From an uncultured Planctomycetales bacterium (GTDB lineage Bacteria > Omnitrophota > Gorgyraeia > Zapsychrales > JANLHA01): a stretch of DNA of 64,000 bases. The stretch spans positions 120,099-184,098 of the forward strand of contig CAZAXH010000002.1 of the NCBI GenBank assembly GCA_964489065.1, written 5' to 3'. The translations under genes were made by a program, and so were the position numbers. Shown here in pieces: positions 3,682 through 63,679 of the stretch; positions within the stretch are counted from its first letter, which is position 1, and every line of letters begins with the position of its first letter. The notes beneath the pieces are model-generated. The model saw only the letters and a list, made by a program, of their open reading frames with translations, did not search any database and was not told where the DNA came from.

Positions 3682-4730
3682 AACTTGATGATTTGATTTA
3701 TCATACCGGTCAGTGGCTCAAAGGGACCGGACCGTATTCCAACATCGTGATGTCCTCCCGCATCCGGCTGGCGCGGAATCTTTTTTCTGTGCCGTTTCCG
3801 AACAAGGCTTCTAAAAAAGATTTGCTGCATGTTCTGGCGACTGTTCAGGAGGCCAAGGATAAAATCGATTATTTCAAGGATGCCACCCTGTTTCAGATGA
3901 GCGAACTGGACAGCATTGACCGCCAGTTTTTGATTGAGCGGCATTTGATGAGCCATGAGCATTCCTCCAATCCCGAAGGGAAAGCGTTGATCGTTTCCCA
4001 GGAGGAAATCCTGTCGGTTATGATTAACGAGGAGGATCATCTGCGGATTCAGGTGATGCAGTCGGGCTTTAATTTGCATGAAACCTGGAAAATTATCGAT
4101 ATGATGGATGATAAACTTTCCAGCATCTTGCAATACGCTTTTTTGAATACCTGGGGGTATTTGACGGCCTGCCCGACCAATACCGGGACCGCGATGCGCG
4201 GTTCGGTCATGCTGCATCTCCCGGCGCTGGTGATGACCAAGCAGATCAACAAGGTCCTGACGGCCATCGCCAAGCTGAGTTTCGCCTCCCGCGGGTTCTA
4301 CGGGGAGGGGACGCAGGCCCGGGGTAACTTTTATCAGATTTCCAACCAGGTTTCCCTCGGGCACAGCGAGGAAGATATTATTCAGAACATCAACGGCCTG
4401 ATCCGTCAGGTGATCGAGCAGGAGGAGCAGGCGCGGCAGGCTTTAATTCTGCAGAATAAACCGATGCTGGAAGACAAAATTTTCCGGTCTTTGGGGGTTA
4501 TCAAGAACGCGCATATTATTTCCAGCCAGGAGACCATTGAGTTGCTGTCGATGGTCCGCTTGGGGATTGACCTCGGGCTGGTTAAGAATATCGACCGCTG
4601 CACGATCAATGAACTGCTGATTCTGATTCAGCCGGCGCACCTTCAGAAGATCGAGGGCAAGAAACTCTCGGCCACGGCCCGGGATATCCGCAGAGCGAGT
4701 TTAATGAGAGAAAAGTTAGGAGGAATGTAG
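3678..4730 (+). CDS. mcsB: protein-arginine kinase (ATP:guanido phosphotransferase family)
   Basis: Phosphagen-kinase active-site motif CPTNTGTAMRGSV. 350 aa; gene order mcsA-mcsB-clpC. Confidence 0.85.
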   Translation: MKLDDLIYHTGQWLKGTGPYSNIVMSSRIRLARNLFSVPFPNKASKKDLLHVLATVQEAKDKIDYFKDATLFQMSELDSIDRQFLIERHLMSHEHSSNPEGKALIVSQEEILSVMINEEDHLRIQVMQSGFNLHETWKIIDMMDDKLSSILQYAFLNTWGYLTACPTNTGTAMRGSVMLHLPALVMTKQINKVLTAIAKLSFASRGFYGEGTQARGNFYQISNQVSLGHSEEDIIQNINGLIRQVIEQEEQARQALILQNKPMLEDKIFRSLGVIKNAHIISSQETIELLSMVRLGIDLGLVKNIDRCTINELLILIQPAHLQKIEGKKLSATARDIRRASLMREKLGGM

Positions 4731-8187: not shown

Positions 8188-8251
8188 CCGGTGCGGGGTG
8201 GATGGCAGCCCCAGGAAATGGCCCGGGTGTGGCGGCGGAAGCGAGGTGGTT

Positions 8252-9616
<1,365 letters not shown>

Positions 9617-31671: not shown

Positions 31672-32949
31672 ATGCGGCGCGCGGTTTTTATCGGCTTATT
31701 TTTTTTAATTTCCGCCGCCTGCGCGCAGGCGGCGGATCTCCCCGAATGGCACGGGTTCGTCGAGCAGGCATACGGGGGCAGGCTGAGCGATGATTCGCTG
31801 ACCAAGCACGGGGGGTATAACATGCTTGAGCAGCGTCTGCAGTTGAAAACCCGTTACTATATTACCGGGGACAACGCGCTGTCCCGCTGGAACAGCGTGG
31901 TGACGTACAAAGGCGATTTCCTCGTGGATGAGTATTTCGGGGGCAGCGGTTCTTATGAGGTGCGCGAATGCCATTTCGCGTTCCGCCCGGCCAGCCTGAT
32001 CGACGTCAAGGCGGGCCGGCAGGTCTTGACGTGGGGCACGGGGGATTACCTTTTTATCAACGATTTGTTCCCCAAAGATTACGTTTCCTTTTATATCGGC
32101 AGGGATGACGAATATTTAAAGAAACCTTCCGACGCCCTGCGCATATCCGCGTATCCGGCCCTGGCCAATATTGATTTTGTGGTCATCCCCCATTTTACGC
32201 CCAACACCATGCCGGAGGGAGACCGGCTTTCTTTTTTCGACAGTTTTCAGGGAGGAATCGCGGGCCGGGCAAGCGACCGTAACGCCGTCAAACCGGCTTT
32301 TCAGGCGGAGAATACGCAATACGCGCTGCGTGTTTACCGGACCTTCGGCAGCCTGGAAGGCGCGTTGTATTATTACCGCGGCTTTGACCCTTCGCCGCGC
32401 AGTTACCTGGACGAGGCCAACCGGCAGCTTTTTTATGAGCGGCTGGACGCGTACGGTGCGAGCGTCCGGACGCCCTGGGCCGGGGGGATAGGCAGCATGG
32501 AGGTGGGGTATTACCGTTCGCGCCAGGACCCGGACGGGACGAACCGCCTTATCGAGAATTCCATGTTCAAGGGAATGGCCGGATATGAAAAAGATCTGGG
32601 GAATGATCTTAAAATCGGGGGGCAATATCTATATGAGCAAAAGCTCGATTACTCCGCGTATAAGGCCGCGCTTCTTCCCTACGACTATTTTTGGGATGAA
32701 CGCCGGCATCTCCTGACCCAGCGGGTGATCAAATTTTATAAGAACCAGACCGTGATGCTGGGGCTTTTTAATTTTTGGTCGCCGTCGGACAGAGACGGGT
32801 ATGTCCGGGTGTCATGCGCTTATGACATATCCGATCAATGGAAGCTGGTGGCCGGGGTCAATATCCCGTGGGGGGAGGATAGGATCACGGATTTCGGCAT
32901 GATGGAAAAAAATAAGAACGCGTTTGTGCGGGTGCGCTATAGTTTTTAA
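31672..32949 (+). CDS. putative outer-membrane beta-barrel protein (DUF1302-like)
   Basis: Signal peptide (AACAQA), alternating beta-strand pattern and a C-terminal aromatic residue (...VRYSF). Its gene neighbourhood is with the MMPL and LolA-like genes. Confidence 0.4.
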   Translation: MRRAVFIGLFFLISAACAQAADLPEWHGFVEQAYGGRLSDDSLTKHGGYNMLEQRLQLKTRYYITGDNALSRWNSVVTYKGDFLVDEYFGGSGSYEVRECHFAFRPASLIDVKAGRQVLTWGTGDYLFINDLFPKDYVSFYIGRDDEYLKKPSDALRISAYPALANIDFVVIPHFTPNTMPEGDRLSFFDSFQGGIAGRASDRNAVKPAFQAENTQYALRVYRTFGSLEGALYYYRGFDPSPRSYLDEANRQLFYERLDAYGASVRTPWAGGIGSMEVGYYRSRQDPDGTNRLIENSMFKGMAGYEKDLGNDLKIGGQYLYEQKLDYSAYKAALLPYDYFWDERRHLLTQRVIKFYKNQTVMLGLFNFWSPSDRDGYVRVSCAYDISDQWKLVAGVNIPWGEDRITDFGMMEKNKNAFVRVRYSF

Positions 32950-35817: not shown

Positions 35818-36302
35818 GGGGAGACCTGATTCCAAGACGGTGGGCGTTTGTTTGTGTGCTGACGCTTCCGCTGCTTTTTTCCTGCCGGATGGCGGAGCCC
35901 AGGGACCAGGTGTGCTTCCCCGGCGCCTGCTATGATGTGGAGTTGGCGTTAACGCCGGAAACCCGCCAGCGGGGGCTGCAGCGCCGGGTCCAGATGCCTA
36001 CGGACCACGGCATGCTCTTTGTTTTTCCGAAGAGTTCCGCATACGGGTTCTGGATGAAAGAAACCCTTATCCCCCTGGATATGATTTGGATGGACCACAA
36101 CCGCCGTATTGTCCACATTGAAGAGCATGTCCCTCCCTGTGAAACAACAGCTCAAGATTGTCCGGTTTATACCCCGCCGCAGCCGGCTTTGTACGTTTTG
36201 GAATTAAACGCGGGACAGGCGGCGGAAAAATGTTTAAAGGCCGGCCTGACAGCCGAGTTTCATCTGGCCCCTCAACCTCCGGCAGATAAAACGGCCCAAT
36301 AG
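35814..36302 (+). CDS. DUF192 domain protein
   Basis: DUF192 pattern (MLFVFP...GFWMKETLIPLDMIWMD) preceded by a signal-like N-terminus. Confidence 0.6.
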   Translation: MRGDLIPRRWAFVCVLTLPLLFSCRMAEPRDQVCFPGACYDVELALTPETRQRGLQRRVQMPTDHGMLFVFPKSSAYGFWMKETLIPLDMIWMDHNRRIVHIEEHVPPCETTAQDCPVYTPPQPALYVLELNAGQAAEKCLKAGLTAEFHLAPQPPADKTAQ

Positions 36303-36519
36303 AAAGCCGGGATTGAATTTCACGAATTATTTTTTACCCGCGTGTGTTCCTTTCCTTAAATCTTTGAAAGTAATAAAGTTAATTCTAATCCAAATCTTGC
36401 TCTTATTCATAAGGTATGATATATTTAATTTACCCTTTCAAATCACCCTGTCCCAAGATTTTTGACAAATCTTGTCTTATCTCATTCTATAATTTTTTAA
36501 AAGCGGGAGGAAAACCCAG

Positions 36520-39500
36520 ATGATGAGTTATTTCCGGAATTGCCGTAACCAGTGGTCTTACAAACTTCTTGTGTCATTTGTCAGTTATTCTTTTGTGGCG
36601 GGACTGATCCTGCCTCCTGTGACGCTTTTGGCCGCTGAACCTCAAAAAGGGATTCTCGGCCTGCCGATGCCCGGGTCAATGGTGCTGAAAAGCGACGTTT
36701 ACACCCCGGCATGCCTGAAAGGCATTAAGATTGACCCGCAGAATCCTTTGAAATTTGATTTTATTATTGATTCCGGCAAAGACGAGTTGACAGGGCAGGC
36801 CCTGGAAGAAGAGGCTAGCAAGCTGATTAAATATTTTTTGGCGACCCTGACGATTCCCGAAGAAGACCTGTGGGTGAACCTTTCCCCATATGAAAGCGAC
36901 CGGATCATCCCTGAAGGCTTTGGCCTTACGGAGATGGGCCGGGACCTTCTGTCCCAGGATTACATGCTCAAACAGCTTGTGGCGTCTTTGATTTATCCGG
37001 AACAGGATTTGGGGCAGGAATTCTGGCAAAGAGTGTATGACCGCGCGGCCAAGGAGTACGGCACAACCAATATCCCGATCAACACGTTCAATAAAGTGTG
37101 GATCATTCCGGAGGACGCTTTGGTCGTCGAGCATAACGGCAGCGCTTTTGTCGTGGACAGCCATTTGAAGGTGATGCTGGAAGAAGACTATCTCGCTTTG
37201 GAAAAGAATCTGGCCAATCAGAAACTCGGCACGACCAAGATCACCGAGGATTACGTGAAAACGTTAAGCAAGGTCTCTTCGGATGTGGTCCGGGAAATCC
37301 TTCTCCCGGAGATTGAAAAAGAAGTGAACGAGGGGAAAAATTTCGCCAAGCTCCGGCAGATCTATAATTCCATGATTTTGGCCACCTGGTATAAACAGAA
37401 CCTGCGGGCGACTCTCCTGGGCCAGGTGTATGTGAATAAAGGGAAAATCAAAGGGGTGGATGTTGATGACCGGGAGATAAAACAAAAGATTTATGAGCAG
37501 TATCTGGAAGCCTTCCGGAAAGGTGTTTATAACTATATCCGGGAAGATTATGACCTGGCGTCGAAACAGGTCATCCCCCGGAAATATTTTTCCGGCGGTT
37601 TTGACGCGTCTGCCATGTCCAGCGCGGTCCGGGCCGTGGATCTTCAGGATATCCCGCTGTCGTCTCCTTTGCGGGCGAGGGTGGATCAGGGCTTGAACAT
37701 TTCCAGCCCTGTGGTTCAGGTATCGGCGATTCTGGCGGAAAACCCTTCAGAAACCTTGGCGGCAAAGGGGGTTGTTACGGCAGAGGACATTACAACCCCG
37801 GTTGTGGTGGCTTCACCGGTCGTGGTTTCCCCGGAAATTTTGAAATTGTACCAGGGTGATATTGAGGAGTTGCAGCGTGTCGCTTTTGATTACGGCGACA
37901 GATCTTTTATCGCGGATGAGAACCGGGCGGTTGCCAAGAGTGAACTGGCCCGGGAGAGAAGAATTCAAGGACTGCTTCTTTTGGCTAGCCGGAACGCTTT
38001 GCCGTTTGAGATCGCGGAAAAGACCGGGACCCATTTGACGGATCTGGTGAATGTGGCGAATGAAATAGTCTCCGAGGGGTATAGTGAGCGGTTATCCCAG
38101 GCGTTGACCGAGGCCGAAAATGCACTTTTGCAAAATTTGAACGAAACGGAACTTACTGTTTTGTACCAGGCGGCTTTATCATCTCCGATCGCGGCAGGCA
38201 CAAGCCGGTTTCAGGATCTTAGTCCCTTCGGCCAGCAGTACGCGGAGTTGCGGGTTCGTCATTACCTCGGGTATGTGGTGGGGTCGCAGGGAAGAGGCGG
38301 GGTGACTGAGGCGCAGGCTGCGGCATTCCTGTCAAGGCTCAATGCGGATATATCACGCATGGTTCAGGCAGGTCGCACTTTAAAAGAAATCGGCGAGCAC
38401 TATTTCCCAGAATTGAGCGACGAAACCCGGGCCTTTGTTGAACATTCCCGGACCCAATATGAATTGAACAGAAAATCCAACGCCAGAGTCATGGCCGATG
38501 TCCTGATCGCGTCTTTGTCGGCTTCCGAAACGGACCGCTATGACAGGGCGACGATAAAAGCGGAACCGATAACTTTTCCTTCACGCTGGCCGCAACTGGA
38601 TGTTTTCAACGCTTTGGAAAGAATCGTGCGGGAGCGGGGCCAGGTGCTCGTCAGCCCTTCGTCGCCGGTTTCGCAGCAGTTTGCGCAGCTGTCGACTGAT
38701 GAAGTTGTGGGGGACCTAGCACGCAATTTCGGGCAATCATATGACACGATGATTTCTTTGGTGCCTTTTTTGGCAGAGACCACGGGGGTGTCGGAAGAGA
38801 GGATCCTGCGGGAGCTCAATGATGACACGTACAAGGTTTTTGCCAATCAGTTGTCCCAGATCTCGGAGATGGTCAAAGCCCGGGAGATTTTCCCGGAACA
38901 GGTGACTGTGCGGGTTTCTATGGAAGAGCCGGAGCAGGCGCCGATACAACTGGCGGGAGAGAGGACGGTCCCGAATGTCTTGTTCTGGCCCATGAAAGGC
39001 GACCCGTGGCAGTCCGGGCACATCTGGATGATCTTGGAAGCGATCATCAAGAACAAGATCGATAAGGTTGTGATCATGATCGACAACAGCGATCCGACCC
39101 GGAAACCGGATTTAAGTTCGTTGACGATCCGGGAGGCGTTTTCCCGGGTGATTTTTGACAAGTATTTAAAGCCGTTCGTCCAGTACACCACGCTCCCTAA
39201 AGAGATGCTGGAATTGTTTTCCGCGGATGGCGAAACGGTGATTTTTTATTTCGCGGAACTTAACGCGAACCAGCCCATGAACCTGTTTTACGGCGCGGGG
39301 TCGGACCACGCGAATTTGTATGCCCTGAAGAAGTCGGTAATTACGTCAGGCGATTTTACGAGCACGATCGCGGGGATCGAAAACGCGGCGGAGCGCCAGC
39401 GGATTCAGCAGATGTTTGCCAACGCGGGCTATATTGATGAACAAGGGCGGCCGATAACACAGGCGTTTGATTTCCTGGTCGAACGGTTGAAAGAACGGGG

Positions 39501-42500
39501 ATACCTGGATGAGAAAGGCAAACCGGTGAGCGGGAAGTTTACCGCCTATTATGAGGAAGGCAGGCCGGAAGAACTGTTGTTGAGCGATCTGCAAGATACA
39601 GGTTTGGAAACGGAAGACGCCCGGAGGATCGTGTATCAGGCGCTGTTCGCCCCGGATGTCCCGCGGAAGATTTATAACAAAATGACGGCCGGAGAACAGG
39701 GCTTAAGAGGGTTCCAGACCCGAAAAGATATCCAGAAGATGAACATTGTTTTCAGTCAGCGTCCGGGGGAAGGAATTGATGAGAAACTCCTTAAAGCGTA
39801 TGAGGAGAAGCTGGCGGTGGAGTTAAACGCGCGGGGATTGCCAAGGCTGGGCTTGTCAACCATTTTCCAGCCGATAGACGCGTCATCCACCGATGTGCGC
39901 AAGCGCGGGCAGTTCTGGAAGGTGCCATGGGTATCGCTGCAGGTGGCGAACGCGTTTAAGATGTGGGGGTATGAAATGGATGGGAACAGTTCCCAACAGG
40001 AAGGGCGGGCGGCGAATTTGAGGCAAATCGCGTCCCGAGTCCTGGCCGGTGACCTTAGCGAGGAAGCGCGGAGAGCCGCTTTGGATCAGATCCGGATGGC
40101 TGTGAGCGCGTTAAATGGGTTGGGTTTGGACGCTTTTGACAAATATGTCATGGGCGAGATTATAAAGGTAGAGGCTGCCTTAAGGACGCCGGCCGGCGAG
40201 CAGGAAATGGCGCGGTTGGAAGTTGTCGATGCCTGGCTGAAACAAGTACGGGGACTGATTTTCGCGCAGGCACAAACCCTGGCGGAGCAGGCCATGGATA
40301 ACCCTCTCCCCATCCGGCGGCAAGACCAGCAAAGGATGAGGGATTTACTGGTGGGCGGGCGGGTGGTGCCTCCTGCGGTGGTGAGGGAGTATTATCAGAC
40401 CCGTAGCCAGCGGGGCCTGTCGCTTGAGCCGGAGGCGATGGCCGTCGAGTTGGGGGTGACCCCGGCTCTCATCAGGGCCACTATGTCCTCTCCGGTCGTT
40501 AAAAAGATCCTTGTCGTGGATGACACGGAAGAAGTGAGGGATTTGAACAGGGATATTTTTAGTACCATCTTCTCCGGGGCGGAAGTTATCACGGCCGTGA
40601 ACGGCGAAGAAGGGTTGAGGACGTTCCGGGAGAATCCGGATATAGATCTCGTGGTTACCGATCTTGAAATGCCGGTGATGAACGGGGAGCAGATGGCCCG
40701 AACGATCCATTCCGAGCGTGGTGGTGTGCCGGTGGTCCTGGTTTCCGGGAATAACACAGAAGTGCAGCGGCTGTCCAAAGTGGATGAGGCCTCGGGATTG
40801 AAAAGCGGTCTTTTCACCGAAGTGATTCAGAAACCGTATCAGCTTAAGGCGATTATTGATTTAAAAGCCAGGTTGTCTTCTTCCCCTATTGTTAATAAGA
40901 TTTTGGTCGTGGATGATGTTGCCGGTATTAGAATGCTGTTGCAGGATGAATTGGGCGATATCTTTACCGAGGCTGAAATCATTACCGCTGCCAACGGGGA
41001 AGAAGGGTTGAAGATGTTCCGGGAGAACCCGGATATAGGCCTGGTTGTGACCGACCTGCAAATGCCGGTGATGAACGGGGAAGAGATGGCCAAAACGATC
41101 CGTTCTGAGCGTGATGTGCCGGTCGTTCTGATGACAGCCAACAGCCAGGAGATGACGCGGTTATCCGTCGTTGATGAGACATCGGGATTGAAGAGCGGGC
41201 TTTTTATGGATGTGATTGAAAAGCCTTACAGCTCTGACGCGATCACGGCTTTAAAAGATCAATTGTCCGTGTCGTCTCCGATTCAAAATAAAATTACCCT
41301 TACCGCGGAAGATATGGACGTCATCGGGAATATCCTGGATATTGACCGGGAAGTTTACGGGGATCAGGACGCCTGGGCTTATGCGGCGATCCGGGTTTTG
41401 CTGGCCAATCAGCTTCAGTATCCGGAGGCCATGCCGCCGTTAAGGCAGTCGGCCAGAATTTTAGGCATCAAATGGCAGGATGGAGCTTATCCGATAGAAG
41501 ACGCCATGTTCAGGCTGCTTCCGGCCAGTTTGGCGGTCGGTTATAATCTGCGGGATGTCAATGCGTACCGGACATTAAAAGAAGCCATTGATCTGGAACG
41601 GGCCGGTCAATTCGGCGATGCGGAGAATAAACTGGCCGAAATCGAAGGGGTTGATAATCAGAAGGCGGATCAGATATTGAAAATGGCGGCGGCGGTCTTT
41701 AATAATTCCGTCGCGTTATCCATTGACAATGACCTTGATCTGCAGATGACCATGCTGGGGGCCGGACGGGCGGAAAGAATGCCCCTCGTGGACTTCGTCG
41801 CCATTTCCCGCACGGCTCCGTTGCAGCTGACGGCGGAGAATAAAGAGAGGCTGAATGTCCTTCTCAACGAGGCCGAAACGGTTCTGCAGCGGGTGGAGAT
41901 TGAAACGGTTGAAGACCGTGTCGTCCTGGAGCAAATCCGTAAGGACGTGACGGGTATTTTAGAAGAAGCCGGCGCGATCTTTTCAACGTTCGCGCTTGAG
42001 GAGGAATTGAGAAAATCCACTCCGGCCGAGGAAGCGGTGCGGTTGCAGCAGGTCATAACTACGATGGCGGAGATTGAAGCCAAGCTGGGGCCTTCTCCGG
42101 CGGCGGATCTGGCCTCGGAGGAAGAGGTCTCTTCTCCGGTCCAGGTGGTGGAAAAAACAATGGATAAATTCCGGCTGCAGAACCGCGCCACCAGGGAGTT
42201 ATTAGACGGATTTGTCAACGGCTCGATTGAGAGAAACACCGCTGGCCGGGAGCTCAACCGGCTGCTTCGGACGGAAAGACAGGCTCGGGGCGTTTCCTCG
42301 GGAGGGGTGCTCAATTTCGCGCAGCGGTTGAATGGCCAATTAGAAGCGCAATCATCGCCCCTCGGCGGTATCAACCTGAACCCGGCTTTGTTAAACTTGC
42401 AGATCAAACGGGACAATAACGGCGTGCCGCTGCCTTTGCCGCAGCAGCCTGTCGGGGATATGAATATTGACGGATTTGTGCCGGTCATCATCAATATTAC

Positions 42501-42678
42501 GCCTATCCCGAATCTGCCGATGCTGCTGGGCAGAAACCTGGGGGACGCCCCGGCGCAGGGTGTTCCGGCTGCGGAGAAAGAAGGCCATAAGCAGGGACCG
42601 TCTCAACCATCGGAAAAAACAGGCGTCCAGTTTTTCTTTGATGATAAAGATCAGTTGAGCTTGTTGAATTACAATTAA
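36520..42678 (+). CDS. giant multidomain protein: signal/anchor, helical regions, divergent HxGH-type nucleotidyltransferase-like segment and tandem REC receiver domains
   Basis: Uninterrupted 2052-codon ORF with RBS GGGAGG 7 nt upstream. Hydrophobic N-terminus. Central FWPMKGDPWQSGH...TSTIAG resembles the cytidylyltransferase/NadD motifs (FDPxHxGH, ISSTxIR). Two REC domains carry canonical DD, D, S/T and K positions (ILVVDD...VVTDLEMPVMNG...VLVSG...QKPY). Confidence 0.85.
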   Translation: MMSYFRNCRNQWSYKLLVSFVSYSFVAGLILPPVTLLAAEPQKGILGLPMPGSMVLKSDVYTPACLKGIKIDPQNPLKFDFIIDSGKDELTGQALEEEASKLIKYFLATLTIPEEDLWVNLSPYESDRIIPEGFGLTEMGRDLLSQDYMLKQLVASLIYPEQDLGQEFWQRVYDRAAKEYGTTNIPINTFNKVWIIPEDALVVEHNGSAFVVDSHLKVMLEEDYLALEKNLANQKLGTTKITEDYVKTLSKVSSDVVREILLPEIEKEVNEGKNFAKLRQIYNSMILATWYKQNLRATLLGQVYVNKGKIKGVDVDDREIKQKIYEQYLEAFRKGVYNYIREDYDLASKQVIPRKYFSGGFDASAMSSAVRAVDLQDIPLSSPLRARVDQGLNISSPVVQVSAILAENPSETLAAKGVVTAEDITTPVVVASPVVVSPEILKLYQGDIEELQRVAFDYGDRSFIADENRAVAKSELARERRIQGLLLLASRNALPFEIAEKTGTHLTDLVNVANEIVSEGYSERLSQALTEAENALLQNLNETELTVLYQAALSSPIAAGTSRFQDLSPFGQQYAELRVRHYLGYVVGSQGRGGVTEAQAAAFLSRLNADISRMVQAGRTLKEIGEHYFPELSDETRAFVEHSRTQYELNRKSNARVMADVLIASLSASETDRYDRATIKAEPITFPSRWPQLDVFNALERIVRERGQVLVSPSSPVSQQFAQLSTDEVVGDLARNFGQSYDTMISLVPFLAETTGVSEERILRELNDDTYKVFANQLSQISEMVKAREIFPEQVTVRVSMEEPEQAPIQLAGERTVPNVLFWPMKGDPWQSGHIWMILEAIIKNKIDKVVIMIDNSDPTRKPDLSSLTIREAFSRVIFDKYLKPFVQYTTLPKEMLELFSADGETVIFYFAELNANQPMNLFYGAGSDHANLYALKKSVITSGDFTSTIAGIENAAERQRIQQMFANAGYIDEQGRPITQAFDFLVERLKERGYLDEKGKPVSGKFTAYYEEGRPEELLLSDLQDTGLETEDARRIVYQALFAPDVPRKIYNKMTAGEQGLRGFQTRKDIQKMNIVFSQRPGEGIDEKLLKAYEEKLAVELNARGLPRLGLSTIFQPIDASSTDVRKRGQFWKVPWVSLQVANAFKMWGYEMDGNSSQQEGRAANLRQIASRVLAGDLSEEARRAALDQIRMAVSALNGLGLDAFDKYVMGEIIKVEAALRTPAGEQEMARLEVVDAWLKQVRGLIFAQAQTLAEQAMDNPLPIRRQDQQRMRDLLVGGRVVPPAVVREYYQTRSQRGLSLEPEAMAVELGVTPALIRATMSSPVVKKILVVDDTEEVRDLNRDIFSTIFSGAEVITAVNGEEGLRTFRENPDIDLVVTDLEMPVMNGEQMARTIHSERGGVPVVLVSGNNTEVQRLSKVDEASGLKSGLFTEVIQKPYQLKAIIDLKARLSSSPIVNKILVVDDVAGIRMLLQDELGDIFTEAEIITAANGEEGLKMFRENPDIGLVVTDLQMPVMNGEEMAKTIRSERDVPVVLMTANSQEMTRLSVVDETSGLKSGLFMDVIEKPYSSDAITALKDQLSVSSPIQNKITLTAEDMDVIGNILDIDREVYGDQDAWAYAAIRVLLANQLQYPEAMPPLRQSARILGIKWQDGAYPIEDAMFRLLPASLAVGYNLRDVNAYRTLKEAIDLERAGQFGDAENKLAEIEGVDNQKADQILKMAAAVFNNSVALSIDNDLDLQMTMLGAGRAERMPLVDFVAISRTAPLQLTAENKERLNVLLNEAETVLQRVEIETVEDRVVLEQIRKDVTGILEEAGAIFSTFALEEELRKSTPAEEAVRLQQVITTMAEIEAKLGPSPAADLASEEEVSSPVQVVEKTMDKFRLQNRATRELLDGFVNGSIERNTAGRELNRLLRTERQARGVSSGGVLNFAQRLNGQLEAQSSPLGGINLNPALLNLQIKRDNNGVPLPLPQQPVGDMNIDGFVPVIINITPIPNLPMLLGRNLGDAPAQGVPAAEKEGHKQGPSQPSEKTGVQFFFDDKDQLSLLNYN
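40498..41280 (+). repeat. tandem in-frame duplication (~390 bp unit) encoding the two REC domains of the giant ORF
   Basis: Two consecutive units translate to near-identical receiver domains (KKILVVDDTEEV... vs NKILVVDDVAGI...). The mirrored spurious antisense ORFs at 40395..40817 and 40839..41141 reflect the DNA-level repeat. Confidence 0.7.
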
Positions 42679-42702
42679 GTTCATGGCTTTTTCATGAATT
42701 AG

Positions 42703-42775
42703 AGTATAAAAACCCCTTTGGGCGGTTAGGTATCGAAGATGATGCTGAAACCCCAAGGGGGTTTTCTTTGTATAA
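42703..42775 (+). terminator. putative terminator hairpin after the giant ORF
   Basis: CCCCTTTGGG ... CCCCAAGGGGG inverted repeat with a large loop, followed by TTTTCTTT. Confidence 0.35.
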
Positions 42776-42895
42776 ATTAAGAATGTCCTTCCCCATTGAT
42801 GGCGGGGCTTGTATAATTTTTGATTAAGAAAGAGCGCCGGCTTCAACTTTTAATATTTAACCCTACAATGAAACAACGCGCCTGACCTGACTTTT

Positions 42896-44335
42896 ATGCT
42901 TTTTAATTCTTTAGAATTCGTGGTTTTTTTTCCCGTTGTGGTCGCGGTTTATTTCCTCCTGCCGTTTCGTTTCCGCTGGGCGTGGCTGCTTTTGTGCAGT
43001 TACGCGTTTTATATGGTCTGGAATGTCCCGTATGTGCTGTTATTGCTGGCGTCGACGGCTGTTGATTATTGGGCCGGCCTTAATGTGGCCCCGTCCAAGG
43101 GGAGAGGAGCGTTCAGGCGTAAAATGTTTTTATTGTTAAGCCTGGTCGCTAATTTTGGGATTCTGGGGGTTTTTAAATATTTTAATTTTTTCTCCGCAAG
43201 CCTGAACCGCTTGTTGGAAACCGCAGGCGTGAATTATGTCATCCCGCATCTGGATGTTTTGCTCCCGTTGGGCATCTCCTTTTACACGTTTCAGACTTTG
43301 AGTTACACCCTTGATGTCTACCGGGGGAAGATGGCGCCGCAGAAACATCTGGGTGTGTTCGCCCTGTACGTGGCATTTTTCCCACAACTGGTCGCTGGGC
43401 CTATTGAGAGGGCCACGCATCTTCTGCCGCAGTTTTTTAAAAAACATGAGTTTGACTACGAACGGGCGTGTGACGGCTTCAAGCTGATGCTGTGGGGCTT
43501 TTTTCAAAAGATCGTGATTGCCGACCGGCTGGCGTATTTTGTGAATCTTGTTTACGGGGACCCGCAGGGCTGGAGGGGCTTGCCGGTTTACCTGGCTACC
43601 AATTTTTTTGCGTTTCAGATATATTGCGATTTCGCCGGTTACTCGGATATCGCCATCGGCGCGGCCAAAGTGATGGGCTTTGATATTATGGAAAATTTCC
43701 GGAGGCCTTACTTCGCGTCGTCTATCGCCGATTTTTGGCGGCGTTGGCATATTTCCCTCTCGACCTGGTTCCGGGACTATTTATACATTCCGCTGGGGGG
43801 GAACCGGGTTTCTGTCCGGCGGTGGCATTTCAACCTCATGGTGGTGTTCGTGGTCAGCGGGCTGTGGCACGGCGCGAACTGGACGTTTGTCGTCTGGGGG
43901 GCTTTGCACGGGCTGTATATGCTGGGGGCTATCTGGACGGAAGATATGCGGGGCCGGGTGAAGAGGATGCTCCGGCTGGACCTCCATCCCGGCGTCCTCC
44001 GCTTTCTGCAGGCCGCGGTGACCTATCATCTTGTTTTATTGGCCTGGGTGTGCTTCCGGGCCCGGACCCTGGGCGAGGCGGGTGTTCTGGTCAGGAACAT
44101 GCTGACGTTCGATATCGGCACGCGGTTTCCTTATAAAAATTTTGATTTTATCGTGTCATTGGGGTGCATCGGGCTCTTGTTGCTCGTTCATGGGCTGCAA
44201 ACCCGATGGCGGCTGCGGGATTTGATTGCGGGATGGCCCAAGGCTCTGCGCTGGAGTTTTTATTATTTTGTTTTTTTAGTGATTATATTCTTGGGTAAAT
44301 TTGAAGGGGTCGAATTTATTTATTTCCAATTTTAA
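42896..44335 (+). CDS. MBOAT family membrane-bound O-acyltransferase (AlgI/DltB-like)
   Basis: Multi-TM protein with the conserved MBOAT His region WRRWHISLSTWFRDYLYIPLGGNR. Confidence 0.85.
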   Translation: MLFNSLEFVVFFPVVVAVYFLLPFRFRWAWLLLCSYAFYMVWNVPYVLLLLASTAVDYWAGLNVAPSKGRGAFRRKMFLLLSLVANFGILGVFKYFNFFSASLNRLLETAGVNYVIPHLDVLLPLGISFYTFQTLSYTLDVYRGKMAPQKHLGVFALYVAFFPQLVAGPIERATHLLPQFFKKHEFDYERACDGFKLMLWGFFQKIVIADRLAYFVNLVYGDPQGWRGLPVYLATNFFAFQIYCDFAGYSDIAIGAAKVMGFDIMENFRRPYFASSIADFWRRWHISLSTWFRDYLYIPLGGNRVSVRRWHFNLMVVFVVSGLWHGANWTFVVWGALHGLYMLGAIWTEDMRGRVKRMLRLDLHPGVLRFLQAAVTYHLVLLAWVCFRARTLGEAGVLVRNMLTFDIGTRFPYKNFDFIVSLGCIGLLLLVHGLQTRWRLRDLIAGWPKALRWSFYYFVFLVIIFLGKFEGVEFIYFQF

Positions 44336-44338
44336 GCC

Positions 44339-45322
44339 ATGAGATACGCCCTTAAAGAGATGACCGCATTTGTGTTGATTTTTCTGGCTCTATCCGTGGC
44401 CGTGCATTCCTATCTTATGGAGGGGTTAAAGGCGCGGACAACCGGGGACTTCGGCGACTGGAACAGGATTGTCAACGGCCGGATCAACGCGGATATCCTG
44501 GTGACCGGAGCGTCCCGGGCGCAATGCGGAGTGGATGTCCTTACTCTCGAATACTATTTTAAAAAGAAATGTTTTAACCTGGCGATGAAAGGCAATTCTT
44601 TGACCCTGCAATTAGCCCGGCTTAAAGTGTATTTGAAACACAATAAGGCTCCGGAGGTCATTATCCAGGTGGTTGGCCGCAACGCTCTGCGAAAGCCCCG
44701 GGCGTATAATCCGGGGCAGTTTGTCCCTTATCTGAACGAAGAGGAGCTTTTCCGGCCCCTGACCGGGATTTCCCGGCATTTTATTTTTGCCCGGTATATC
44801 CCGCTGTACAGCTTTGCGTTGCAGAGCCCGTCTTTCACGGTGGACGCCTGGCAGGGGTTGACCGGGCAGGAAGACCCGCCGCAATGCAATAGCGGCTATT
44901 GTCCGGTTGATATGGTGTGGGATAGAAAGAGCGACCTCGCCACCGTAAAAAAACTTTATCCCAACGGGATCATTGACCAGATCACCCAGGAGGGGAAGGC
45001 TGCTTTTGTGGAGTTGGTCCGGCTCTGCCGGGAGAAACACATCCGGTTGATCCTGGTTTACGCGCCGGGGTATTATGAGTTTAATGACTTTGTCGTTAAT
45101 TATGAAGAGGGTAAAGCTTTGTATCATCAATACGCCGGGCAATACGGGTTGGACCTGCTGGATTATTCCTCTGCCGACATAAGCCGGCAGGAAGACATGT
45201 TCTTGAATTCCCAGCATTTGAATTATAAAGGCGCCACGCGTTTTTCAGAAGAGCTCGCGCGGGACCTCGGCCCTTTATTCAATGAGCATTTAATTTACAC
45301 GACCCAAGGGAGTGTAAATTAG
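44339..45322 (+). CDS. hypothetical MBOAT-partner protein (possibly DltD/AlgJ-like)
   Basis: N-terminal TM anchor; lies 4 nt after the MBOAT gene. MBOAT acyltransferases usually pair with an extracytoplasmic SGNH-like transferase, but no clear motif was seen. Confidence 0.4.
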   Translation: MRYALKEMTAFVLIFLALSVAVHSYLMEGLKARTTGDFGDWNRIVNGRINADILVTGASRAQCGVDVLTLEYYFKKKCFNLAMKGNSLTLQLARLKVYLKHNKAPEVIIQVVGRNALRKPRAYNPGQFVPYLNEEELFRPLTGISRHFIFARYIPLYSFALQSPSFTVDAWQGLTGQEDPPQCNSGYCPVDMVWDRKSDLATVKKLYPNGIIDQITQEGKAAFVELVRLCREKHIRLILVYAPGYYEFNDFVVNYEEGKALYHQYAGQYGLDLLDYSSADISRQEDMFLNSQHLNYKGATRFSEELARDLGPLFNEHLIYTTQGSVN

Positions 45323-45747
45323 AAATGCGAATTGATCCTGAGCGAGTGAGCCAAGCGAACGCGTCGAAGGATATGGTTTAATACCCCGGCACTTGCTGCG
45401 GTTAATTGCGTCCAGAGCTTTCATGTCTTTGATTAAGGCAGGAAGGGGCAGGGAAGTGAAATTTTAGAAGGGAAGTATTTTTCCTGCTTGACAAAAGCGG
45501 AAGATGAAAGGGACAGTCCCCGAAAAGTTATGCCCCGGGGACAGGGCACCTCCCGTGTGTTTCCCCTTTGTATTTTCGAGCCCTGCTGGCCTGCCGGCGT
45601 TCAAGCGAACCCGTTTCCCGGATCATAATTGAGGAATCGGGTACTAATTCACGCCGCCAGCCCAGCAGGGCTCTTTTGAGGTTGAAGGTGCAGATTCGAC
45701 TCGTCCCCGGAACTCCCAAAGTTTTTGGGTTTTCAGAAGGGAAAATA

Positions 45748-45776
45748 TTGACAGAATCGCCGTGAACCGCTATACT
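45748..45776 (+). promoter_or_regulatory. sigma70-like promoter TTGACA-N17-TATACT upstream of tRNA-Leu
   Basis: Exact -35 hexamer, 17-nt spacer and good -10, located ~60 nt upstream of the tRNA 5' end. Confidence 0.5.
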
Positions 45777-45836
45777 TTGAGCTACGATTCATCGGATTCT
45801 GCGCATAAAATTTTCAGATCAATATAGAAAATTTTT

Positions 45837-45919
45837 GCCGAAGTGGCGAAATTGGTAGACGCGCACGTTTCAGGGGCGTGTGGCCTTCGGCCATGTGGGT
45901 TCGAGTCCCACCTTCGGCA
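45837..45919 (+). tRNA. tRNA-Leu (anticodon CAG), class II with long variable arm
   Basis: 7-bp acceptor stem GCCGAAG/CTTCGGC, 3-bp D-stem with GG in the loop, anticodon stem CACGT/GCGTG with loop TTCAGGG and T-arm GTGGG-TTCGAGT-CCCAC. CCA is not encoded. Confidence 0.85.
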
Positions 45920-45982
45920 CTAATATAGTATTCAGGGGCTTGCCAAAGCCCCTTTTTGCTGAAAACAGGAAGGGGGCCAGGC

Positions 45983-49003: not shown

Positions 49004-49391
49004 GGGGGTGATTGGTCTCGACTTAAGTTGAGAGACCATAGGTGGCATGCCGAGGACGCCAGGTTGGCCTCGTTAATCATCCGGGCACAAAACAAATGGC
49101 ACTTACAGTGTTGTTGCCGAGGCCGAGGCTATTTTAGCCGAAGCCCAACCAGCCCTTGTTTAATTAAAAAACAAGGCCCTCTTATGAGCCAGGCCTGTGG
49201 GCTTATAAGAGGACATTCAGCAGGCTAGCCGCGGCCAGCGCCTTCGGGGCGGCGGCGAAACTTAAGGAGGATGGCCTGACACAGCCCTGTTTGCCGGGTG
49301 GTTGCAGGTGACACTTAAAGACAAACTACGCATGTAGAGGCTTATGGGAAGCAACTGAAGGACCGGGGTTCGATTCCCCGCACCTCCACCA
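49004..49391 (+). ncRNA. ssrA: tmRNA (ssrA, transfer-messenger RNA)
   Basis: 5' GGGGGUGAUUGG...GGUGGCAUGCCGAGG...GGCCUCG aligns with the E. coli tmRNA 5' region. 3' ...GGACCGGGGUUCGAUUCCCCGCACCUCCACCA forms the T-arm and acceptor with encoded CCA. Internal stop-containing hairpin CCCTTGTTT-AATTAA-AAACAAGGG. Sits directly 3' of smpB. Confidence 0.85.
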
Positions 49392-50333: not shown

Positions 50334-51560
50334 ATGCACCCATTCAGAGAAGGAGATACATTTGCTACTTTTAGAAATATGGTTGACACCATAGTTTCTG
50401 AAATCAATTCTCTTGAAAATAATTATGTATTGAAAGCCTCCCAATCTGAATTGGAAGAGCATTTTGTGGGCAAGGTTCTTATTGACCCGTTAGTTCTTTA
50501 TCCAGAGAAAAGATATATCAAAAATCAATCGGGAACTAAAATTGATGTAAGTCGAGACTTCAGAAGGGGACTTTTTCCTGATGAGAGAGCAATAGTACAA
50601 GGAACAAAAGTTGACATTGCCATTCCATTTGAGGGCGACCCAATGCTATGGAGAATCAGGGCTTCTACTTTTAGTTTAAGCGGTTATCCTGAAATTGAAG
50701 TTCGGAACAATGAAATTGTTTTTAGCGTAAGTTTCCCTGACGACTCTGCACAATCAAGCCAACTTCTAGCCGAGATTGACCGCAACACAAAATCACTTTC
50801 AGATGCAGTGGGCTACCTAAAAAGTGATGTCACCAATCACAACAACTCTGCACCAAATACCATCAAGCAGGCTTTGACGAGAAAACGGACGCTTGCTCAG
50901 TCAACAACTGGCGCTATTGCCGCTTTAGGTATTCCTGTAAAACGAGTTGGCGAAGAACCAACTTTTACTATTCCCACAAAAAGAAGAACCAGACCTGCCA
51001 CGCTACCTACTGTTGCAACGGGGAAATATGAACCTGAACCTGTTCTGGATGAGAAGGAATATCAACATATTTTGGAGATATTAAGAAGCATGTCTCTAGT
51101 AATAGAGCGAAACCCATCGTCTTTTGCATCTCTTGATGAAGAAGCAATAAGAGACCATTTTTTGTTACAACTCAATGGTCATTATGAAGGCGGAGCGACA
51201 GGCGAAACTTTCAACGCATCTGGCAAAACTGACATCCTAATCAGAGAAGGCAATAAAAATGTTTTCATAGCCGAATGTAAATTTTGGCGCGGGCAAAAGG
51301 TTTTTACGGAAGCGGTTAACCAATTACTTGGTTATCTTACTTGGAGAGATTCAAAGTGCGCTTTGCTTATTTTCAATAAAACTAAAGACTCAAGTGCTGT
51401 CCGACAAAAAATGCACGAAACTATGGAAGCATTGCCAGAATACAGGAAAACAGAATTTCATCAACCAAATGGAGATTCTCGTTACATTTTGGTCAAAGCG
51501 TCAGAGCCTGGAAAAGAAATTGTCGTTACAACTCAACTCTACGATATACCAGTTGTATAA
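50334..51560 (+). CDS. uncharacterised protein with C-terminal PD-(D/E)xK nuclease-like motif (AT-rich islet)
   Basis: 408 aa. C-terminal GKTDILIREGNKNVFIAECKFWRG gives a D-x14-E-C-K restriction-endonuclease-fold signature. The N-terminal ~290 aa have no recognisable motif. Composition is AT-rich and foreign. Confidence 0.5.
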   Translation: MHPFREGDTFATFRNMVDTIVSEINSLENNYVLKASQSELEEHFVGKVLIDPLVLYPEKRYIKNQSGTKIDVSRDFRRGLFPDERAIVQGTKVDIAIPFEGDPMLWRIRASTFSLSGYPEIEVRNNEIVFSVSFPDDSAQSSQLLAEIDRNTKSLSDAVGYLKSDVTNHNNSAPNTIKQALTRKRTLAQSTTGAIAALGIPVKRVGEEPTFTIPTKRRTRPATLPTVATGKYEPEPVLDEKEYQHILEILRSMSLVIERNPSSFASLDEEAIRDHFLLQLNGHYEGGATGETFNASGKTDILIREGNKNVFIAECKFWRGQKVFTEAVNQLLGYLTWRDSKCALLIFNKTKDSSAVRQKMHETMEALPEYRKTEFHQPNGDSRYILVKASEPGKEIVVTTQLYDIPVV

Positions 51561-61900: not shown

Positions 61901-62030
61901 TCTGCGGAATCACGGGAAGATCACGGTCACAATTAACCGGGAAACGTATGCCGTAGAGGAGTGCCTTATTGACGGCGAGCTGATCATGCAACCCATACAA
62001 ACCATAATTCGTTTTCAGACAGAAAAATAA
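58983..62030 (+). CDS. large polytopic membrane protein with extracytoplasmic TPR-repeat region
   Basis: 1015 aa with ~8 N-terminal TM helices, then TPR-like repeats (AYYQRALVFYAMQDLAQPLADLSKAIELKPDFVEAYRLRLEIN) and a long C-terminal soluble region. Confidence 0.6.
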   Translation: MEAVSVNKPMRMLAVTGFFFACLVFYFVNSMSSDGNYFVQPDNRAGLLAVGIVFMIINSTVHTGFWRGERWGFYFYSFFWVLLTSILGDTEDLGSRPDAYVQWFPVLFLIAGGFIVLPWHPAFRLKFFPDRSWPQFVVSYMVLFCYWMVALLGVVGLFMMGMLIFYKILGAPVLSWQILLVGGMLGGISVLFWLLARGLSRRKRWAYVVVVVYLVGLLFSIYSDDMKCFSFSFWQYYFPSLLFMAFVGGFLGLFLGTPVRDLFFKRLQPDSPSAGTASLPKEDATGTKPNIKRIFTIAGMLFLAAGLAITAIFLWKKDEIAVFSQELFPWLGLEQKFEKTGVPEFPRVLSVDKKNETVKVNIGQDWGLKPGDVLKIYRGEDYKGEMTVSEVLPQGSWARPVLPLTAKDIRARDNIVCETPLFYYKRGDIYLSLRQNSAAREDYEKVAQLEARSPLHALGLGKLAYASQQYSQALSFLDKAIAADSGLAEAYYQRALVFYAMQDLAQPLADLSKAIELKPDFVEAYRLRLEINIKASRFEECKADISRLEELRAAVDPSILQQLETDSGKLRVTQSPAGSRTAKPQTIILPEGRAFPWQDPAGWRRVSFSEATTGQLVPINLEFIVPDSYVSASGDSWSLWGDPNDIKRISKDMQDPSSLFYADKPLFDFFYSMTVAYFEDTGRFNIEQNKGSSKASAGSKWQRTSIGGYPALISMDDYNGRTLYSCHIATMMATNVVTFSVVSGKSSSPEDNESTWMTFLKGIRRPRFKAPSLEGEDAAETLQRVRAALIPEGRKAKIGIALKIMAGPESAAERPVFAQDILLTQGEQGFEQMDIQGRVSGEAIVTREGNISNIEAWEFPVPKIDEEKIIREGDRVKVEVTNDGQSFSSEVPFQEFGKYSPALALLGGQPFAATQKELVEDLLDMYDFKQTESGDKIILHGVGNKDRLKRKMPEGTSRDLPEFYHDVDLAEEALRNHGKITVTINRETYAVEECLIDGELIMQPIQTIIRFQTEK

Positions 62031-63679
62031 TGAAAAGAAAGATTCCGCCGGTGTTGACCTTGTCTTTGATTTTATCCGCGCTTGAGATAGTGGCCTATCC
62101 GTATCCGGGGATCCTGTCTTGGCTGGCCTCCCGGTGCTGGCTGGCGCATGGCGCGTTTTATTTCTTCAGCAGTATCGCGTTTATTTATAAAACCCTGCGG
62201 CAGGATGTCCGGGAAAAAAATTTCCGCGGGCTGGTAATTTTCTTCCTGTTTGGCTGGATGATTTTGAATATCGCGGGGTCCCGGGGGATCGTCATTAACC
62301 ATGAAAGCACGCAACAGGTGGCTGATGGATGCGCCTTTTTCAAGCTGCCTGATTTTAATTACACGCAGACAGGGTTTTTTGGGTATCCCGCGCGGCAGTA
62401 TCTTGTCGTCGCCCTGCCGTCTTTGCTTTTGGGAAGAAGTCTTCTGGCACTCCGGTTAGGGTACGCCGGGGTTTTCCTGCTTGGGATTATGTTGTTTTAT
62501 TGCGGCCTGAACCGGTGCTTTTCTGAAAGCAAAACCGGGAGAACCCTGATCGCTCCGGTTATAACGCTGTCGCTCCTGTGTTTCCCCGTCGTTGTCAACA
62601 TCATGGCGGCCTGTGAACAGACCGTTTTGCCTATATCATTCACGCTTCAGGCGGCGGGGTGGTTTTTGTTATGCCTTAAAGCCGCCACGCCCGGGCGGCT
62701 GATCAGTTTAGCTTATGTCGGAGGGTTGCTGGCGACATCATACACTCCGGGGCTCGCCCCGTGGCTTTTACTGATCGTTTTGATGGGCTTGCGCGTGAAA
62801 CAGGACTTGCGGTTGAAACAGTTCGATCGCATGGCCCTGTGGTTGAGCGGAGCGGTGTTTGTCGCCGCTATCGGCGGCGCGTCATTCTTTACCCGGATAG
62901 ATATGCTTGCCCGGCAAAGCGGAGTCTGGGTCCCCGCTTCCGTGCGGTGGCCATATCTGGTGGCCGCCCTAAGAGAGATTTTTATCCCTTTGTTTTATGC
63001 ATTTTTGCCTTTGCCTGTCGTAATTTATGTCCTGTTGTCCTTGCTGAAAATGTTTCGCCCCCGGGATTTCTGGATATCCCTTTGGGCGGTGGTGACGATT
63101 TTCTTGGCGACCCAACTCGGCGGACTCGCAAGCCCGGCCCCTCCGTACAGTTTACACAGGGCGTTGGTGATTATCCCGCCGCTTTTGATATCGTTGGCTT
63201 TAACCATTGAGCCGTGGCTGGCTGGGCAGGGGAAGATATCCCCTAAGATCCTGTTGTTGGCTTTGGTTTTCGGGCTATTGATCCCGGCGAAGAATTTACG
63301 TGAAGGACTGAACCTGTGCAGGAGCGGGATCCGGGATAAGGTCGTTTATGACACCTTGGATGTGGTGCATACGTATGGGATTGACCCCAACGGTCCGTTA
63401 CGGTTTATCGTCGTCCCGGAGAATGTTGAATATTCCGGTCTGCATGATTGTTTCAGGTATTTTTATCCTAAATTTGAATTTTTATGGCGACAGGATATTG
63501 TCCTCAGGATGGGAATAGCCGATGTTCCGACTTTGGTTTATCTTGATGCGGAGAGTCCGATTGTCAGCGTTATGGAAATGCTTTGGACGCGGCGCGCGGA
63601 CTTGGCGGTGGTTCAGTTTTCTTTCCAGGAACAGAAGGTGCGATTTCTCCGGGGGGTTTATATTCCGGCTAAGAAATAA
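62030..63679 (+). CDS. polytopic membrane protein, possibly GT-C-fold glycosyltransferase-like
   Basis: 549 aa with >10 TM helices. Start overlaps the stop of the upstream gene (TAATG). No catalytic motif confidently recognised. Confidence 0.45.
   Translation: MKRKIPPVLTLSLILSALEIVAYPYPGILSWLASRCWLAHGAFYFFSSIAFIYKTLRQDVREKNFRGLVIFFLFGWMILNIAGSRGIVINHESTQQVADGCAFFKLPDFNYTQTGFFGYPARQYLVVALPSLLLGRSLLALRLGYAGVFLLGIMLFYCGLNRCFSESKTGRTLIAPVITLSLLCFPVVVNIMAACEQTVLPISFTLQAAGWFLLCLKAATPGRLISLAYVGGLLATSYTPGLAPWLLLIVLMGLRVKQDLRLKQFDRMALWLSGAVFVAAIGGASFFTRIDMLARQSGVWVPASVRWPYLVAALREIFIPLFYAFLPLPVVIYVLLSLLKMFRPRDFWISLWAVVTIFLATQLGGLASPAPPYSLHRALVIIPPLLISLALTIEPWLAGQGKISPKILLLALVFGLLIPAKNLREGLNLCRSGIRDKVVYDTLDVVHTYGIDPNGPLRFIVVPENVEYSGLHDCFRYFYPKFEFLWRQDIVLRMGIADVPTLVYLDAESPIVSVMEMLWTRRADLAVVQFSFQEQKVRFLRGVYIPAKK

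Follow-up and report, generated by a model that had tools for sequence, protein, structure and literature searches.

What are two adjoining receiver (REC) domains doing in the middle of a giant protein, and how did the pair arise? The question is raised by a 64-kb window of DNA (the whole stretch analyzed here: positions 120,099–184,098 of contig CAZAXH010000002.1; coordinates below are those of the window), in which an uncultured Omnitrophota bacterium encodes a giant modular protein with twin RECs. A first-pass annotation, made from the sequence alone, had seen a recent tandem duplication yielding a REC-REC protein without an output domain. Our preferred reading, in which we place somewhat better than even confidence, is that a unit made of an SSP linker and a REC was duplicated long ago and became fixed within a modular protein, and that the two RECs act as phospho-switches on their neighbors.

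The twin receivers and their host protein

The RECs make up residues 1323–1584 of the open reading frame (ORF) at 36520–42678, and form two adjoining in-frame units of 393 nt (131 codons) each, counting from SSP linker to SSP linker (Table 1). The span first proposed for the pair, 40498–41280, is near the measured 40486–41271 without coinciding with it, and the peptides quoted from it are present in the sequence. Both units also have the common tail (SGLKSGLF followed by KPY) and the preceding SSP-V/I linker that were originally described. Two stretches matched the Pfam model Response_reg (PF00072), with 102.7 bits against a cut-off of 30.2. Many receivers in the PDB match the RECs, with E-values down to 4e-12, and the solved structure nearest to REC2 is the Thermotoga maritima TrrA-type receiver 3a0u (E = 4e-12).

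Aligned with each other by BLASTP, the two units gave an E-value of 1e-58, a likeness far beyond chance. They are 66% identical in protein (86/131) and 70% identical in nucleotides (274/389, with 17 gap columns); a higher nucleotide identity of 81% is confined to a core of 157 nt, and the longest perfect DNA match is 22 nt. Tandem Repeats Finder reported no array at the RECs when positions 36000–43000 were scanned. The alignment supports an origin of the pair by tandem, in-frame duplication of a single unit made of SSP linker and REC. The copies are homologous, adjacent, and in frame, as first annotated, but to call them near-identical was an overstatement. Gene conversion was considered for the 81% core and not adopted: the proportion of synonymous differences (pS) in the core is still 0.43–0.49, and the same stretch is the most constrained at the protein level.

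No close stand-alone relatives of the RECs were found in a database search with the 262-residue pair, which returned generic receivers alone; the best matches outside giant proteins were at most 47% identical, in a search that also missed known giant orthologs with 75%–100% identity and is therefore of little weight. This word-indexed search is an example of how short queries can miss true relatives among very long targets.

We defined the module bounds of the protein by cutting it at SSP[V/I/L]. The motif occurs at residues 381, 395, 554, 714, 1323, 1454, 1585, 1871, and 1945, starting in the DNA at 37660, 37702, 38179, 38659, 40486, 40879, 41272, 42130, and 42352. A 609-residue NadD-like module lies directly upstream of the RECs, and 468 further residues lie downstream. 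The notion of a REC-REC protein without an output domain fails here, since the RECs lie within an ORF of 2,052 residues, have modules on both sides, and belong to a protein whose full length is conserved in orthologs. When each non-REC part was scanned singly with Pfam and NCBIfam, no family was matched apart from a faint NadD match. Module 1585–1870 stands directly after the REC or RECs in the window protein and in three of its positional orthologs (P0003, P0004, and P0002), and modules 395–553 and 554–713 are common to positional orthologs only.

Table 1. Coordinates of the features discussed (window positions, unless a locus is named)
Feature	Coordinates	Strand	Residues or content	Basis
Complete ORF	36520..42678	+	2,052 residues; all modules within	ORF list; full-length orthologs P0003, P0004
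Signal-peptide-like N-terminus	36520..36636	+	residues 1-39; basic n-region, hydrophobic core, PP, ...LAA/EPQ	
Conserved N-domain	36637..37659	+	about residues 40-380	family signature
Two SSP-starting modules, no family match	37702..38658	+	residues 395-553, 554-713	SSP[VIL] segmentation
NadD-like nucleotidyltransferase module (putative)	38659..40485	+	609 residues (714-1322)	AF2 model, Foldseek, motifs
REC1 unit	40486..40878	+	residues 1323-1453; SSPV linker + receiver domain	Pfam PF00072
REC2 unit	40879..41271	+	residues 1454-1584; SSPI linker + receiver domain	Pfam PF00072
Two SSP-starting modules, no family match	41272..42351	+	residues 1585-1870, 1871-1944	segmentation
Conserved C-terminal motif	42352..42678	+	SSPL-GGINLNPALLNLQIKRDNNGVPLPLPQQPVGDMNIDGFVPVIINITPIPNLPMLLG + variable tail + stop codon	in 118/120 top hits
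NadD-like duplicates of P0002	L005:10134-11960, L005:11970-13799			ENA ERZ21869602 contig ctg94587l
tRNA-Leu(CAG)	45837-45920			
tmRNA	49004-49391		tag peptide GTYSVVAEAEAILAEAQPALV	

The neighbor upstream of the RECs is a candidate enzyme. Its AlphaFold2 (AF2) model is a single confident unit (predicted local distance difference test, pLDDT, 89.4; predicted template-modeling score, pTM, 0.87), with helical subdomains flanking a NadD-like core. The top PDB matches of this core in Foldseek, which cover part of the model, are NadD enzymes (probability 1.00, target-normalized template-modeling score 0.64–0.71, E about 1e-2). Two motifs, GDPWQSGH (38998–39021; HxGH type) and QPIDASSTDVR (containing SSTDVR, of the ISSTxxR type), have most of their residues invariant among eight homologs. 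The sequence models are less telling: TIGR00482 gave a faint match at the HxGH region, with an E-value of 0.008 and a score far short of the model's cut-off, and there was no Pfam match. Searching the PDB by sequence profile returned nothing significant for this module; only the search by fold pointed to NadD.

The module resembles NadD (nicotinate-mononucleotide adenylyltransferase, of the HxGH superfamily) in its predicted fold and in its HxGH-like and ISSTxxR-like motifs. It differs in that its core holds a large insertion and additional helical subdomains are present (the alignments span about 340 columns, compared with targets of about 190 residues). Going by the model, we call it NadD-like in its fold core and a putative nucleotidyltransferase.

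Age of the duplication, module turnover, and the protein family

We compared the two RECs by the Nei–Gojobori method, which gave a pS of 0.63, a synonymous distance (dS) of about 1.4 (saturated), a nonsynonymous distance (dN) of 0.25, and a dN/dS of 0.19. Full-length orthologs of the window protein are found in two related species (P0003, 2,049 residues, 88% identical; P0004, 83% identical), each with both RECs. REC1 is 85% identical to its counterpart in P0003 and in P0004, and REC2 is 81%–82% identical to its own counterparts there, whereas the two copies within any single one of the three proteins are just 63%–66% identical. As REC1 groups with REC1 and REC2 with REC2 across species, the duplication is older than the split between these species. 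Orthologous REC copies differ between species by a dS of 0.4–1.1, and the genes flanking the locus have 72%–98% protein identity. The first-pass annotation had called the duplication recent and had itself taken low nucleotide identity between the units as the sign of an ancient one; by that measure, with 70% nucleotide identity, a dS of about 1.4, and REC1/REC2 orthology across species, the duplication is ancient.

More distant orthologs extend this picture. P0005 carries a REC pair with the same distinction at the position of CheY T87, Ser in the first copy and Thr in the second. P0002 and P0006 each have one REC, which is of the REC1 type (76% identity to that copy compared with 63%–64%, and Ser at the T87 position). 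This gives a hint, and a hint only, that the ancestor of the group may already have had the pair, with the P0002/P0006 lineage later losing the second copy.

Is the copy number variable among strains, as had been predicted from the presence of a DNA-level repeat? Exactly two RECs were found in 15/15 sequences from independent assemblies that cover the region (NCBI, JGI, and Logan assemblies, falling into three species-level clusters at 90% identity). This excludes both copy-number variation between strains and an assembly artifact as the source of the duplication. Nor does the locus look like a recombination hotspot, with two RECs in every assembly and 22 nt as its longest exact repeat. The copy-number idea holds only at greater evolutionary distance, where P0002 and P0006 have one REC; among close strains it fails. 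Taken together, the alignments show the REC duplication to be old and fixed: a single cassette consisting of an SSP linker and a receiver was copied in tandem and in frame.

The gene holds the same position in six genomes, in the order phosphoribosyltransferase (PRTase), Maf, M48 peptidase, DUF192, giant gene, and MBOAT. Its positional orthologs have conserved ends and differing interiors. The interior order is NadD-like, REC, REC in the window protein, P0003, and P0004; it is NadD-like, NadD-like, REC in P0002 (2,919 residues). A UDPGP domain and one REC are found in P0006 (2,747 residues), and P0005 (2,906 residues) has a different interior with two RECs. From one positional ortholog to another, modules have been added, dropped, or duplicated.

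The NadD-like copies of P0002 form a 1.83-kb in-frame tandem with 98.85% DNA identity (1806/1827), and most of the differences fall within the first 220 nt. Recent in-frame duplication of a whole SSP-bounded cassette would therefore occur in this gene, though not at the RECs of the window. The P0002 duplicate itself is either a genuine recent event or an artifact of assembly.

The conserved ends define a family. A region of ~380 residues at the N-terminus, made up of the hydrophobic N-terminal segment and, directly behind it, a conserved N-domain of ~340 residues, is common to 120/120 of the best database matches, with 50%–100% identity in the N-domain, and a motif of ~55 residues at the C-terminus (the C-motif) is present in 118/120 of these top matches and in the window protein. 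The consensus of the C-motif is GGI(D/N)LNPALLxLQIKRDGNGVPLPLxQQPIxxMxIxGFxPVIINITPxxNLPxLLG. Both terminal parts are much better conserved than the cargo modules between them. There is no Pfam or NCBIfam model for the N-domain or the C-motif, and the N-domain yielded no fold assignment. Interiors of family members contain varied Pfam domains: phosphoglucomutase, UDP-glucose pyrophosphorylase, phosphoglycerate kinase, glucose-6-phosphate isomerase, triose-phosphate isomerase, enolase, glycogen synthase, GGDEF, PP2C, methyltransferases, and RECs.

A profile of the N-domain matched at least 8,346 representatives at 50% identity, 6,669 of them at E ≤ 1e-30. In the 150 best profile matches, the match starts at or near residue 1 of proteins that range from 420 to 5,312 residues. 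Counting one genome per species, there were at least 590 loci, with several paralogs per genome. The loci listed come mostly from metagenome-assembled genomes (MAGs) labeled Omnitrophota, and a good number are labeled "uncultured Planctomycetales". Such "uncultured Planctomycetales bacterium" labels on genomes bearing the N-domain are probably automatic mislabels of Omnitrophota MAGs.

Very long proteins are a known trait of the phylum. Seymour et al. described ORFs of >20 kb along with host-dependent traits in Omnitrophota (PMC10066038). According to two further studies (West-Roberts et al. 2023, 10.1101/2023.11.21.568195; Nielsen and Lui 2026, 10.64898/2026.06.07.730766), the very long proteins contain many metabolic and signaling domains, with PF00072 among the common ones, and frequently repeat Pfam domains within a protein. 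The catalog of Nielsen and Lui covers proteins of at least 10,000 residues (10.64898/2026.06.07.730766). The window protein shares with these multi-enzyme proteins its phylum, a string of domains that includes PF00072, repeats, and a signal-peptide-like N-terminus (a predicted signal peptide or membrane anchor in theirs); the passages searched in the two studies contain no mention of an N-domain/C-motif frame, of SSP[V/I/L] boundaries, or of a family of 0.4–5.3 kaa (thousand amino acids). A paper in JBC on SpeD fusions in Omnitrophota proved unrelated.

Our literature search, in a limited collection, found no description of the N-domain/C-motif frame, the SSP junctions, or this size class. The window protein is a member of a very large Omnitrophota family for which we found no description. 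With 2 kaa, not 100 kaa, it is a compact example of the modular multi-enzyme proteins of this phylum, and its positional orthologs with differing modules allow the parts to be defined: a fixed frame of N-domain and C-motif, junctions constrained as SSP peptides, and cassettes copied in frame. As a setting for receiver domains, the architecture of this protein is a new variant; the REC duplication itself is ordinary.

Its layout invites comparison with MARTX-type toxins, which have conserved terminal regions and a variable central array of effectors. The likeness, one of architecture only, lies in the conserved ends and in a mix-and-match center whose content varies from one related genome to another. 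We found no relationship to MARTX in sequence or fold, the window protein has no protease domain, its family carries housekeeping-type enzymes and receivers as cargo, and export and processing are hypothetical here.

Receiver function and competing readings

Are the receivers working switches? The residues aligned to CheY D12, D13, D57, T87, and K109 are D1334, D1335, D1381, S1409, and K1438 in REC1, and D1465, D1466, D1512, T1539, and K1568 in REC2. Both Asp pockets are thus intact, each with the full catalytic quintet, and the predicted phospho-acceptors are D1381 (codon 40660–40662) and D1512 (codon 41053–41055). The quintet is whole in all RECs of the positional orthologs and in 26/30 RECs of family members. 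Each REC is under purifying selection (dN/dS about 0.1–0.2) and has its own signature, which is kept across species. Between REC1 and REC2, the proportion of nonsynonymous differences (pN) is highest in beta1-alpha1 (0.35) and lowest around the acceptor Asp (0.07–0.10). Established work on two-component systems has identified alpha1 as the main surface for phosphodonor docking and partner specificity in receivers. We infer from the intact quintets, and from a divergence focused on this docking region, that the two receivers are both functional, with different partners or roles.

Judged by these residues, both RECs are most likely working phospho-switches. REC1 and REC2 probably take their input from different donors, or one of them passes the signal to the other. 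Phosphorylation would then probably alter the conformation or the oligomeric state of the polypeptide, and the altered polypeptide may regulate the NadD-like module directly upstream, module 1585–1870 directly downstream, or both.

Several observations weigh against this scheme. A histidine kinase or Hpt domain is absent from the protein and from the 64-kb window (Pfam scan, including the 30 other ORFs), which is otherwise a housekeeping region; kinase signatures are likewise absent from 218 family members (regular-expression scan for H-box/N-box/G2-box combinations). The N-terminus looks like a cleavable Sec signal, and phosphorylation of the RECs is hard to see if the protein is exported. 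The link between the RECs and the NadD-like module is one of adjacency, and the two also occur apart, with NadD-like modules in paralogs that lack RECs (P0007–P0010) and RECs alongside other enzymes in P0006, P0016, and P0042. The missing Hpt domain and histidine kinase also leave the phosphorelay or phosphate-sink role suggested in the first-pass annotation without positive evidence.

How do the RECs compare with known receivers? They resemble CheY-like receivers (PF00072; 3a0u) in scoring above the cut-off and keeping the catalytic residues, and differ from them in being internal to a long protein with a signal-like N-terminus and no kinase nearby. Tandem receivers on one polypeptide are found in FrzZ of Myxococcus, a small stand-alone protein of two CheY-like domains with an acceptor Asp in both, and in PleD of Caulobacter, where a degenerate second receiver precedes a classical output domain (REC-REC-GGDEF). 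The window pair is like FrzZ in that both acceptor Asp residues are kept, and unlike it in not being a small stand-alone protein. PleD differs more, as no known domain lies downstream of the window pair (Pfam, NCBIfam) and REC2 retains all its catalytic residues.

The SSP junctions raise another possibility, that the protein is a polyprotein in which SSP[V/I/L] marks processing sites, so that a precursor is cut into two CheY-like receivers, a NadD-like enzyme, and other modules. The motif is present at every module boundary and is absent from the interior of the 609-residue module, whose modeled fold is confident. In the middle regions of the 120 top matches, no 4-mers are more enriched than SSPV (58-fold) and SSPI (39-fold), and the nine SSP motifs of the window protein use varied codons. 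This codon variation implies a constraint on the peptide and not a DNA recombination signal at the module junctions, a candidate that we rejected on the same ground; the peptide-level constraint is as expected of processing sites. A gene for an M48 metalloprotease lies two genes upstream in 6/6 syntenic loci, which may be mere lineage gene order. One study proposed that larger giant proteins of Omnitrophota process themselves by autoproteolysis (10.1101/2023.11.21.568195), which would fit as well. However, there is no sign of cleavage, and a Pfam scan detected no protease domain in the window protein. Three or more copies of the SSP motif were found in just 31/120 family members examined, about a quarter, and a Pro in third place would be just as usual in a linker, whether plain or modified. 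We consider a polyprotein unlikely.

A further reading takes the N-terminus at face value. We counted residues in 181 intact family N-termini, on which our signal-peptide call, a heuristic one, is based. They have a median of four K/R and zero D/E before a hydrophobic 15-mer (mean Kyte–Doolittle value 2.28), and an A-Q site follows in 161/181, of which 131/161 have A, V, S, or G at position −3. Read heuristically, the family N-termini have the layout of a cleavable Sec signal peptide. It is paradoxical to see a Sec-like N-terminus ahead of enzymes that depend on nucleotides and receivers that are competent for phosphorylation: either it is no export signal or the modules act outside the cytoplasm of the producer.

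On the second option, the protein would be an exported carrier or effector, with the signal peptide, N-domain, and C-motif as a delivery frame, and with RECs and enzymes that act outside the producer's cytoplasm; the twin receivers might drain or hijack phosphorelays of a host or prey cell. The three-part Sec layout fits such a carrier, as do terminal parts that are far more conserved than the cargo. So does what has been published on the phylum: Omnitrophota are reported as host-dependent nanobacteria (PMC10066038), and most of the very long proteins have a predicted signal peptide or transmembrane helices (10.64898/2026.06.07.730766). On the other side stand the heuristic nature of the signal-peptide call, the absence of secretion-system genes adjoining the locus, a cargo of housekeeping-type enzymes that are not recognizable toxins, and an N-domain without an assignable fold. 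Such an exported carrier seems rather unlikely to us. We know of no receiver domain shown to act outside its producer's cytoplasm in such a way. The fuller version of this idea, a carrier protein with a Sec signal, SSP junctions that serve as processing or modification sites, and receivers that work outside the cytoplasm, for example by rewiring phosphorelays of a host or prey, has equally low standing in our judgment. The protein raises a testable question, whether phosphorylation-competent receivers and nucleotide-dependent enzymes are truly exported behind a signal peptide or are processed from a polyprotein.

The RECs could also be structural pseudo-receivers, never phosphorylated and used only as dimerization or scaffold modules. 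This would agree with the lack of a cognate kinase in the window and in the family scan, and arrays of up to four RECs, which recur in the family, would fit a scaffold. However, pseudo-receivers usually lose some of the catalytic residues, as the second receiver of PleD has done, which is of the dimerization or scaffold type. All five are kept in both copies here, in all positional orthologs, and in the 26/30 family RECs, which makes pseudo-receivers quite unlikely.

The original view, in which a recent duplication made a stand-alone REC-REC protein serving as phosphorelay or phosphate sink and a DNA repeat drives copy-number variation between strains, agrees with the tandem, in-frame, homologous units and the single copy in the distant positional orthologs P0002 and P0006, and is extremely improbable as a whole: its recency, its stand-alone claim, and its strain variability are excluded by the divergence and cross-species orthology of the copies, their position inside a long ORF, and the constant two copies without a long exact repeat, and no Hpt domain or kinase lies nearby.

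Other genes in the window and at related loci

Elsewhere in the window, adjoining genes at 3678–7163 encode an ATP:guanido phosphotransferase (McsB-like protein arginine kinase) and a ClpC-type AAA+ chaperone, and a RadA-like gene follows this pair at 8198–9616. A tRNA gene and a tmRNA gene lie downstream of the giant gene (Table 1).

Local synteny breaks between the P0003 genome on one side and the window and L004 on the other, beyond the gene that follows MBOAT. At that position, the P0003 genome has a TEN_YD-shell gene with weak RHS-repeat Pfam matches and a small ORF (L001:16813–19384); the window (compare 45323–45955) and L004 have a dihydrolipoamide-dehydrogenase-type gene instead, which in the window comes after the tRNA-Leu gene.

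Four window ORFs of 327–549 residues had no Pfam match (31672–32949, 44339–45322, 50334–51560, and 62030–63679). The first of these is conserved beside LolA-like and MMPL genes in related genomes, and the second beside the MBOAT gene.

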